Origin: Octopus vulgaris
Lineage: Eukaryota
NCBI GenBank assembly: GCA_951406725.2
Contig: OX597827.1
Coordinates: forward strand, 27,404,001 to 27,468,000
Length of the DNA: 64,000 bases
Direction of reading: 5' to 3'
Of the stretch, positions 37,799 through 39,111 are shown piece by piece; the first letter of the stretch is position 1; every line of letters starts with the position of its first letter. The notes under the pieces are model-generated. The model was given only the letters and a program-made list of their open reading frames with translations, ran no database searches and was not told the DNA's origin. The position numbers and the translations under genes are program-made.

Positions 37799-38036
37799 TA
37801 TATATATATATATATATATATATATATATCATAATAAATCTCTGAGCGAGGTATAAACAGTAACTGCTCTATAATATAAGCGGGATCAGCCATCTGAATG
37901 TGGCTAGGGACAGGGCGGGGGTGGGGGTGTTACTGATGCATTTAGCCCCAGGCGACTATCGACGTCACCAGAGAGCCGACACCATCACGGTGTCCTTGCT
38001 AGCCTGCAAAGGGAGATCAGCCCCACCGAAGATACG

Positions 38037-38095
38037 GATGCTACACACGGACCGGTTTCGAGGTATTTGCCTCTTGTCAGCGCATGGCAAGCACC
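38037..38095 (-). ncRNA. type I hammerhead ribozyme (family A, copy 1)
   Basis: Reverse complement of the motif at 38680-38738. Confidence 0.7.
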
Positions 38096-38679
38096 GTTCT
38101 TCGCTGAGGGACTTCCTGTACAGGCCAGATATATATAGATTTTCACAGTAACCACAGTCACTGGCGTAGAAAATCCGTTCGATAACAATAATAAATCTCT
38201 GAGCGAGGTATAAACAGTAACTGCTCTATAATATAAGCGGGATCAGCCATCTGAATGTGGCTAGGGACAGGGCGGGGTGGTGGGGGTGTTACTGATGCAT
38301 TTAGCCCCAGGCGACTATCGACGTCACCAGAAGAGCCGACACCATCACGGTGTCCTTGCTAGCCTGGAAAGGGAGATCAGCCTCACGGACCGGTTTCGAG
38401 GTATTTGCCTCTTGTCAGCGCATGGCAAGCACCGTTCTTCGCTGAGGGACTTCCTAAGGACACCGTGAGGCTAAATGCATCAGTAACACCCCCACCACCC
38501 CGCCCTGTCCCTAGCCACATTCAGATGGCTGATCCCGCTTATATTATAGAGCAGTTACTGTTTATACCTCGCTCAGAGATTTATTATTGTTATCGAACGG
38601 ATTTTCTACGCCAGTGACTGTGGTTACTGTGAAAATCTATATATATCTGGCCTGTACAGGAAGTCCCTCAGCGAAGAAC

Positions 38680-38738
38680 GGTGCTTGCCATGCGCTGACA
38701 AGAGGCAAATACCTCGAAACCGGTCCGTGTGTAGCATC
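38680..38738 (+). ncRNA. type I hammerhead ribozyme (family A, inverted copy)
   Basis: ggtgct-tgc-catgcg-CTGACAA-gagg-caaata-cctc-GAAA-ccg-GTC-cgtgtg-t-agcatc; palindromic stem III accggt. Confidence 0.7.
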
Positions 38739-39111
38739 CGTATCTTCGGTGAGGCTGATCTTCCTTTGCAGGCTAGCAAGGACACCGTGATGGTGTCGGC
38801 TCTTCTGGTGACGTCGATAGTCGCCTGGGGCTAAATGCATCAGTAACACCCCCACCACCCCGCCCTGTCCCTAGCCACATTCAGATGGCTGATCCCGCTT
38901 ATATTATATATATATATAATATATATATATATATATATATATATATATATATATATATATATATATATATATATATATATATATATATATATATATATAT
39001 ATATATATATATAACGGGAAGGTTTACGAAAATAAACAAAAAACGAAGGCAGGTGGAGTACAAACAAACAAATGTATTAGTATGGCGCTCAGGAATAGAA
39101 ATAGAACAAGT

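Follow-up and report, generated by a model that had tools for sequence, protein, structure and literature searches.

Two-armed insertions of a non-coding hammerhead repeat in the Octopus vulgaris genome, probably made by Penelope-type machinery, and a LINE targeted to a putative promoter start

We consider it very probable that the locus described here, in a 64,000-nt stretch of the Octopus vulgaris genome (hereafter the window), is a two-armed insertion of a non-coding hammerhead repeat of ~360 nt, a non-LTR retrozyme, which likely carries its own snRNA-type promoter and was likely inserted by Penelope machinery, and whose putative transcription start serves an L1/Tx1-like LINE as a fixed target. 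The retrozyme class and its link to Penelope are already in print, and the element itself is of an ordinary class. What is added here is a strict rule for the ends of the insertions together with a mixed-template event, the spread of a lineage with a C3·A8 core, and a dual-target LINE at a promoter-defined site. The main text and one supplement of an octopus repeat annotation do not contain the word "ribozyme", and Repbase or Dfam may already list the families. The genome surveyed comprises 2.8 Gb in 227 contigs, about 30 of them large, with a microsatellite-rich landscape.

Positions 37831-38908, which the first-pass annotation had assigned to two hammerhead families, contain family A only, and as an inverted pair rather than a plain tandem (Table 1). 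A minus arm of ~1.75 units is joined head to head, through 10 nt of filler, to a plus arm of ~1.2 units, and (TA)n runs flank the palindrome on either side. Its three type I hammerheads repeat the stems that had been reported (outer stem I GUGCU/AGCAU, inner CAUGCG/CGUGUG, stem II GAGG/CCUC and stem III ACCGGU, found three times), with a UGC bulge and a stem II loop CAAAUA. The reported period of 357 nt holds for the minus arm and gives way to 359-360 nt elsewhere. One family A unit folds well beyond its shuffles (z -5.1), with stem I prolonged into a long rod. No ORF of 120 aa or more lies over the repeat unit and there is no LTR; an ORF with RT and GIY-YIG is absent from the repeat, and no shared ORF was found beside the arrays. 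A separate inverted pair (37597-37800 and 39013-39111; 131 nt, 98% complementary) faces into family A's (TA)n run; its copy at 37597-37800 has a degenerate minimal hammerhead-like motif, and the pair looks like another Penelope-type terminal repeat family.

Table 1. Positions in the window of the two retrozyme insertions and of the elements within them
Feature	Positions	Strand	Remarks
Family B left arm, 3' part	18203..18437	-	hammerhead 18363-18423, core CCGACGA; outer end S1
L1/Tx1-like LINE in family B	18438..23923	-	ORF1 zinc knuckle; ORF2 AP endonuclease and RT; target duplication of 16-17 nt
Family B left arm, 5' part, upstream of the LINE; contains promoter-like motif	23924..24102	-	
Family B right (inverted) arm, truncated end	24103..24279	+	hammerhead 24151-24211, core CCGACGA, stem II AUGU/ACAU
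Family A left arm, ~1.75 units, leftward	37831..38455	-	outer end at the long (tail, S2) site in (TA)n
40-nt tail, S1-to-S2 segment; conservation between A and B highest here	37831..37870	-	
Type I hammerhead, core CUGACAA (C3·A8)	38037..38095	-	
Second hammerhead, core CUGACAA; 22-nt deletion broke the 3' strand of stem I	38375..38433	-	
10-nt filler at the head-to-head junction	38456..38465	.	
Family A right arm, ~1.2 units	38466..38908	+	outer end at the short site (S1) in (TA)n
Motif like the U1/U2 proximal sequence element, 59 nt upstream of the LINE-target homologue; putative promoter	38611..38617	+	
Putative transcription start, homologous to the LINE insertion site of families B, C and D	38670..38670	+	
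Type I hammerhead, core CUGACAA, palindromic stem III; predicted cut after 38725	38680..38738	+	

Family B lies elsewhere in the window (18203-18437 and 23924-24279) and is also two-armed, split by a 5.5-kb LINE. Once the LINE and its target duplication are subtracted, its period comes to the reported 355 nt (5858-5486-17), and all the stems listed for it are present, with a C·A mismatch at the base of stem II. It had been described as colinear with family A yet diverged, which the alignment bears out: 242 of the 376 columns (64%) are identical, from end to end. Further families, C, D, E and A', were recovered at LINE flanks and by pattern searches. Elsewhere in the window, an inverted pair at 28990-29480 (86%) has a minimal hammerhead motif with a long stem II and a palindromic stem III, its second copy being decayed, and a 32-bp tandem repeat at 56589-56742 (4.8 copies, each beginning with CTGATGA and containing GAAA) may be what is left of a hammerhead array. 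At 39620-40480, 14238-14935 and 41231-41740 there are remnants of a LINE with a restriction-like endonuclease; they end in (AAT)n, and we take them from their motifs to be R4/Dong-like. Comparison of two other ORFs of the window found nothing.

The stems and their covariation indicate that each unit folds as a type I hammerhead. The claim that the stems keep pairing across families held in 21 representatives hand-picked out of 95 distinct motifs: 96.2% of cells pair, 7 out of 19 pairs change on both sides, the covariation score was reached by none of 500 shuffles and slid controls pair at 24-48%, a result that counts as support rather than as a probability since the sequences are related, the control ignoring relatedness and the structure having been named from the same sequences. 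Stem III is palindromic in all families. Two monomeric hammerheads are less stable than the double hammerhead by 13-20 kcal/mol in all seven variants computed; the hammerhead is the minimum-energy fold of the monomer in none of the seven, and the double hammerhead is the best co-fold in only two. As modelled, the hammerhead matches the dimer-dependent type described from amphibians (PMC7229834, PMC4209133). All five hammerheads of the window have non-canonical cores, CUGACAA in all three of family A (C3·A8, against CUGANGA) and CCGACGA (U4C) in both of family B. The initial classification as a non-LTR retrozyme with a dimer-type type I hammerhead is sound as regards the anatomy, which fits, and less so as regards the window's own cores, which are predicted to be weak or dead, so that in vitro cleavage of a window copy could fail even though the family is real. 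The Penelope-type palindrome with its tail signature, the promoter-like motif and the site-specific LINE had gone unnoticed there. A search of Rfam, which had been proposed as a check, gave no match to the window at gathering score; for four loci with E up to 1, there was no hammerhead among 49 matches.

Genome-wide, the superfamily exceeds 1,000 motifs, dispersed as hundreds of ~360-base repeats over many contigs, with arrays of up to ~5 units per arm. Motifs were found by exact patterns and counted by hand, so that the counts are lower bounds on family size. Family A has at least 132, of which 28, at 19 loci on 12 contigs, have the CUGACAA core, and the remaining 104 all read CUGACGA among the matches listed. 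Family B has at least 176 (in the first 100 of the 176, 63 canonical, 32 CCGACGA, 3 CCGACAA and 2 UCGACGA), and U3 variants number at least 857 (in the first 100 of the 857, 52 U3·G8 and 48 U3-A8). These counts indicate that each of the four pyrimidine-purine combinations at 3-8 marks a lineage that amplifies. CUGACAA copies differ by 2.1% on average, end noise included, and G8 sits within a CpG. In the best tree, C3·A8 falls between a U3-A8 sister group and the C3-G8 clade, with a support of 70 in a first analysis of 52 units, from which five junction-containing units had been dropped beforehand, and of 86/77 in a second, which excluded the mosaic copy L011, itself showing recombination. The AU test does not reject a derived C3·A8 (p=0.37), and the tree accommodates a change from C3-G8 to C3·A8 as well as the reverse.

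The spread of the C3·A8 lineage to 19 loci suggests that canonical self-cleavage is likely not needed for insertion. It is possible, though on balance rather doubtful, that the C3·A8 core retains enough activity, or that canonical or U3-A8 partners cut it in trans via the palindromic stem III they share, and that cleavage and circles still underlie the spread. The family A variants seen all retain ACCGGU, so that mixed dimers are possible, and it is established that in a double hammerhead the core of one RNA cuts the other RNA (PMC4209133). Moreover, U3-A8 is among the covariations known to be active and U4C is tolerated despite its impairment, the viroid that carries it staying infectious (PMC3088659), and the remainder of the C3·A8 core stays conserved. 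However, single mutants of G8 and C3 abolish cleavage in an anole element, where insertion proceeds without it (PMC11167929), and in the octopus the 5' ends are not clustered at the cut site (5 out of 127, in a biased sample). Contigs of four runs, which we guess to be RNA and which are not on record as such, cover one unit and include exact C3·A8 pieces along with letters matching C3-G8 and U3 variants; in contigs of three runs (X1, X2 and X9) the unit end is joined to the unit start, as a circle or a tandem, in RNA or DNA, would alike produce. Unit variants are mixed within arrays, which is equally compatible with circles and with multimeric linear templates. Along the five-unit arm of locus L178 (contig C3), unit-specific variants recur with a period of three, as from a trimeric template or a later duplication.

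The evidence on how the repeats insert comes from their ends. The outer (3') ends of the arms fall at two sites, S1 and S2, 40-46 nt apart. Among the 49 family A loci, 33 are two-armed and 16 one-armed; 31 out of the 33 combine one S1 with one S2 end, none has two like ends, and two have one atypical end. In the one-armed loci the two end sites split 7 to 9 and the 5' ends are random. The two-armed loci of family B and other families above 88% identity all have one S1 end and one shorter end (11 out of 11; 10 at 43-61 and one at 28). The tail segment between S1 and S2 is the best conserved part between A and B, with 555 exact matches to a 27-letter pattern, and duplications of ~9-13 nt, read by eye, flank several B and A copies. 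Partner arms are usually each other's closest kin (a median of 3% of pieces from other loci are closer), and a locus-private variant is common to both arms in 7 out of 31 loci; the arms differ in L018 and in the window's family B element. Arm similarity could result from gene conversion after insertion. Inverted copies truncated on their 5' side, with a tail of 30-40 bp at one of the ends, are typical of Penelope insertions (PMC8557442), and an inverted truncated arm, a tail at one end and an AT-rich target are what 31 of the 33 family A loci show.

Several loci depart from the simple pattern. L184 and L185, 158 kb apart on C16, have a common inversion junction and common variants, with different flanks and swapped tail sides, which suggests that a palindromic element was re-inserted with its ends reset. 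On C1, a second, diverged retrozyme-family element begins directly after a family A array, in its (TA)n region (L183:2076 onward), and at C1:11168456-11169077 the tail motif occurs six times at a spacing of 119 nt, a short-period derivative. A 3.58-kb spacing of hammerheads on C1, considered as a sign of an autonomous element, was rejected as a segmental duplication.

An ORF scan of the retrozyme loci revealed a Penelope-type RT fused head to head with a family A arm. The family it belongs to is presumably Neptune-like, judging from its motifs in the order RT, zinc finger and GIY-YIG. It is very young: in a survey of the top 150 hits of this one family, amino-acid identity was 98-100%, with ORFs up to 1,312 aa and 4.6-kb partial tandems. 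Its target is (TA)n, and in 16 out of the 16 two-armed copies with both ends in view the ends lie at ORF+25/26 and ORF+76-85; four further copies showed one end only. Chimeras with family A were found in 4 of the top 30 Penelope loci, and because the flanks are common to all, they represent a single event (four segmental duplicates). In L232 and L234 the Penelope arm ends at the long site and the family A arm at S1, as the rule predicts; in the duplicate L191 the retrozyme end is atypical. Thus, the common end rule (31/33 and 16/16), together with the chimeric insertion, makes it most likely that these non-LTR retrozymes are mobilised by Penelope machinery.

Which Penelope family is the main partner is a separate matter. 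Between the retrozyme and the Neptune-like terminal repeat the best matches are AT-rich and 17-20 nt long (E 0.009-0.03), with no convincing similarity, so the Neptune-like element may not be the main partner. Its protein has a weak Pfam RT match (E 0.02), and no solved relative of it was found; an atlas search led to generic endonuclease-RT clusters only. The loci L222-L247 show a young Neptune-like family with intact ORFs of ~1,310 aa, a long Asn-rich insert and a degenerate hammerhead-like motif in the terminal repeat, a candidate for an active element. In the window, an ORF fragment at 60832-61623 has no Pfam match and presumably resembles the Penelope linker region.

It would be tempting to regard the repeats as detached terminal repeats (pLTRs) of an autonomous Penelope family that escaped recovery, left behind by heavy 5' truncation and not independently transcribed. 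Their end rule is identical to that of autonomous copies, and the retrozymes of Xenopus are related to pLTRs (10.64898/2026.07.22.740005). We nevertheless consider this improbable, as arrays reach ~five units per arm with no ORF between units, no common ORF adjoins them, the unit has its own promoter-like motif, the Neptune-like pLTR is unrelated in sequence, and the hammerhead is of the canonical tertiary-contact type, not the minimal Penelope type (PMC4209133). The concern, raised at the outset, that the repeat might prove to be part of a larger known element is countered by the same absence of a common ORF and by the lack of a retrozyme-like terminal repeat on the autonomous Penelope recovered.

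The case for independent transcription of retrozyme units rests on a shared upstream motif. ATCAGT(G/C) lies at about -57 to -59 in 19 out of 19 distinct U1 upstream sequences and in both uninterrupted U2 upstream sequences, and is absent from a five-copy U6 array. Upstream of the LINE target in retrozymes, YCAGTS occurs at -61 to -55 in 71 of the 139 distinct sequences (41 at -59) and elsewhere in 2; where it is missing from that place (68 of 139), those sequences that were inspected, a part of the 68, are truncated, junction-bearing or interrupted by a LINE. The motif and its spacing, as in U1 and U2, suggest that the unit has a U1/U2-type snRNA promoter with its start at the LINE target. 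Retrozyme 5' ends fall near this putative start in 14 of 127 cases against 7.4 expected (P=0.017), a weak excess biased by the choice of loci.

That target was defined by the insertions of the LINE itself, in which Pfam recognizes an ORF1 zinc knuckle and an ORF2 AP endonuclease and RT; the best solved relative of ORF2 is human L1 ORF2p (E 4.5e-58). Insertion points were read from 30 3' ends, the best of 42 matches (40 candidates out of 236 were scored). Of these ends, 19 fall directly within retrozyme units, in several families and at a single position ~10 nt short of stem I, and one follows another LINE at that retrozyme duplication. Five more lie at +1 of U2 snRNA (four abutting it and one in tandem at the U2 duplication), three after other sequence and two elsewhere; Rfam confirms U2 in three stretches where the LINE abuts it. 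A second copy of the target lies at the 5' end in 15 out of 20 stretches, and the share of copies in retrozymes, 19 of 30, exceeds the 20% in one repeat by which target-specific Tx1-clade LINEs are recognized. U2-inserted copies retain 13 nt at their 5' end that resemble the family C target, and their parent was therefore likely a copy inserted in a retrozyme. A second LINE family, whose ORF2 is ~81% identical, occupies the same site, and the predicted hammerhead cut lies 62 nt beyond the LINE 3' end. None of 40 U1/U6 loci holds this LINE, which suggests that the promoter alone is not enough and that shared local sequence likely guides the endonuclease too. A U2 snRNA gene cluster (L136-L138 on C3, with L135 on C23) holds several full-length LINE copies at +1, one of them in tandem. 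Tx1-clade elements target U2, microsatellites and DNA transposons (PMC4494074, PMC4640811); a literature search found nothing that links Tx1 with retrozymes or hammerheads.

Since 19 of the 30 LINE 3' ends abut retrozyme sequence, mobilisation of the retrozymes by the L1/Tx1-like or another LINE, in the manner of a SINE, was considered and is very unlikely, being largely refuted: the LINE sits within units with the retrozyme duplication on both sides, which makes it the retrozyme's parasite and not its carrier, and retrozymes end at two internal positions and lie within (TA)n or AT-rich DNA, which sets them apart from the targets of the LINE. It is likewise highly improbable that the elements spread as DNA in the manner of a foldback element or MITE, the palindrome serving as terminal inverted repeats and the hammerhead being a relic, for although the ends are inverted, non-canonical cores are common and two loci have one junction in common with swapped ends, the ends differ by a fixed tail of 40-46 nt, junctions are almost all unique, 16 of the 49 loci are one-armed with random 5' ends, and the stems covary across families.

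We therefore return to insertion by Penelope machinery. The insertion is a palindrome with one tailed and one untailed end; the enzymology proposed for it is borrowed by analogy from the anole Poseidon protein, which cuts both strands of AT-rich DNA, uses two internal RNA start sites, is predicted to dimerise and works in vitro without hammerhead cleavage (PMC11167929). The U1/U2 upstream motif, present 59 nt before the start-like site, would drive each unit, and read-through of tandem units would yield multimeric RNA. For hammerheads whose stem III is short and palindromic, cutting is predicted to take place in the dimer, and the monomers may circularise. A Penelope RT/GIY-YIG protein, likely a dimer, would then cleave AT-rich DNA and start reverse transcription at each cut end, using for each a different one of two fixed RNA-internal sites that lie 40-46 nt from each other, and the two cDNAs would meet head to head, leaving a palindrome with one tailed and one untailed end. 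Canonical self-cleavage would likely be dispensable for insertion. The LINE, inserted in units and U2 genes alike at the start-like site, would borrow their promoter.

A wider reading, which we put forward as tentative and somewhat short of probable, is that retrozymes are snRNA-promoter ribozyme genes in a three-way parasite system. A Penelope dimer would obligatorily prime at two sites, each serving one DNA end, with templates that may come from different RNAs. At least two L1/Tx1 families would have moved between U2 and retrozymes, inserting at +1 for the promoter and having their 3' end trimmed by the hammerhead ~62 nt past the element. Crippled cores would be cheaters, cut in trans via the palindromic stem III or left uncut, and the essential 3-8 pair would in this way have passed through each of the four pyrimidine-purine combinations in amplifying lineages.

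The field has yet to settle how animal retrozymes move and whether they need their ribozyme. The octopus genome combines a young retrozyme, a young intact Penelope with the same rule and natural core variants, which makes direct in vitro tests possible. Furthermore, the one-tail rule and the mixed-template insertion constrain the unsolved mechanism of Penelope integration. If true, a LINE at the same promoter-defined position in a ribozyme repeat and in U2 would be a new class of target, and its dual targets show a possible route of target switching.

The octopus repeats resemble the non-LTR retrozymes of coral, mussel and axolotl in being non-coding tandem units with type I hammerheads, of 150-450 nt (PMC7229834). 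Their units of 355-360 nt are close to the 350-390 nt of mussel; family A resembles axolotl HHR_Amex1, with one pair and a palindromic tetraloop, and family B HHR_Amex2, with two pairs and a mismatch at the base of stem II (PMC7229834). They differ in that multi-arm insertions in the octopus are mostly palindromes with a strict tail rule, the word "inverted" being absent from PMC7229834, which does not mention octopus either. In addition, non-canonical cores define whole lineages in the octopus, whose retrozymes are known here from sequence and not from circles. A Pol II promoter of the snRNA type has also been reported from within a tandem hammerhead repeat of newts, satellite 2 (Coats et al. 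1994, cited in PMC2220036); that of the octopus repeat is proposed from motif and position.

Among site-specific LINEs, Keno (in U2), Tx1 (in the Tx1D transposon) and Tx1-Mar (in Mariner) share with the octopus LINE an AP endonuclease and a fixed site in a multicopy repeat (PMC4494074, PMC4640811), and Tx1-clade LINEs, as described, share a duplication of ~16 nt, tandem insertion at their own duplication and U2 among their targets. The main target of the octopus LINE, a putative member of the clade, is in contrast a hammerhead repeat. Its U2 site spans +1 to +14, whereas that of Keno is internal, at about nt 37.

As described for Neptune and Poseidon (PMC8557442, PMC11167929), Penelope elements share with the octopus retrozymes partial tandems, an inverted 5'-truncated arm, a tail at one end, AT-rich or (TA)n targets and two internal RT start sites. 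The retrozyme differs from them in having no ORF and a canonical rather than minimal hammerhead, and in lacking homology to the one autonomous family recovered. For Xenopus, where 8 out of 9 tested dimers were uncleaved in vitro, retrozymes have been concluded to be non-autonomous Penelope derivatives (10.64898/2026.07.22.740005), the same partner as proposed here. The evidence there is co-occurrence and homology to pLTRs, whereas in the octopus it is insertion anatomy and a chimeric insertion.
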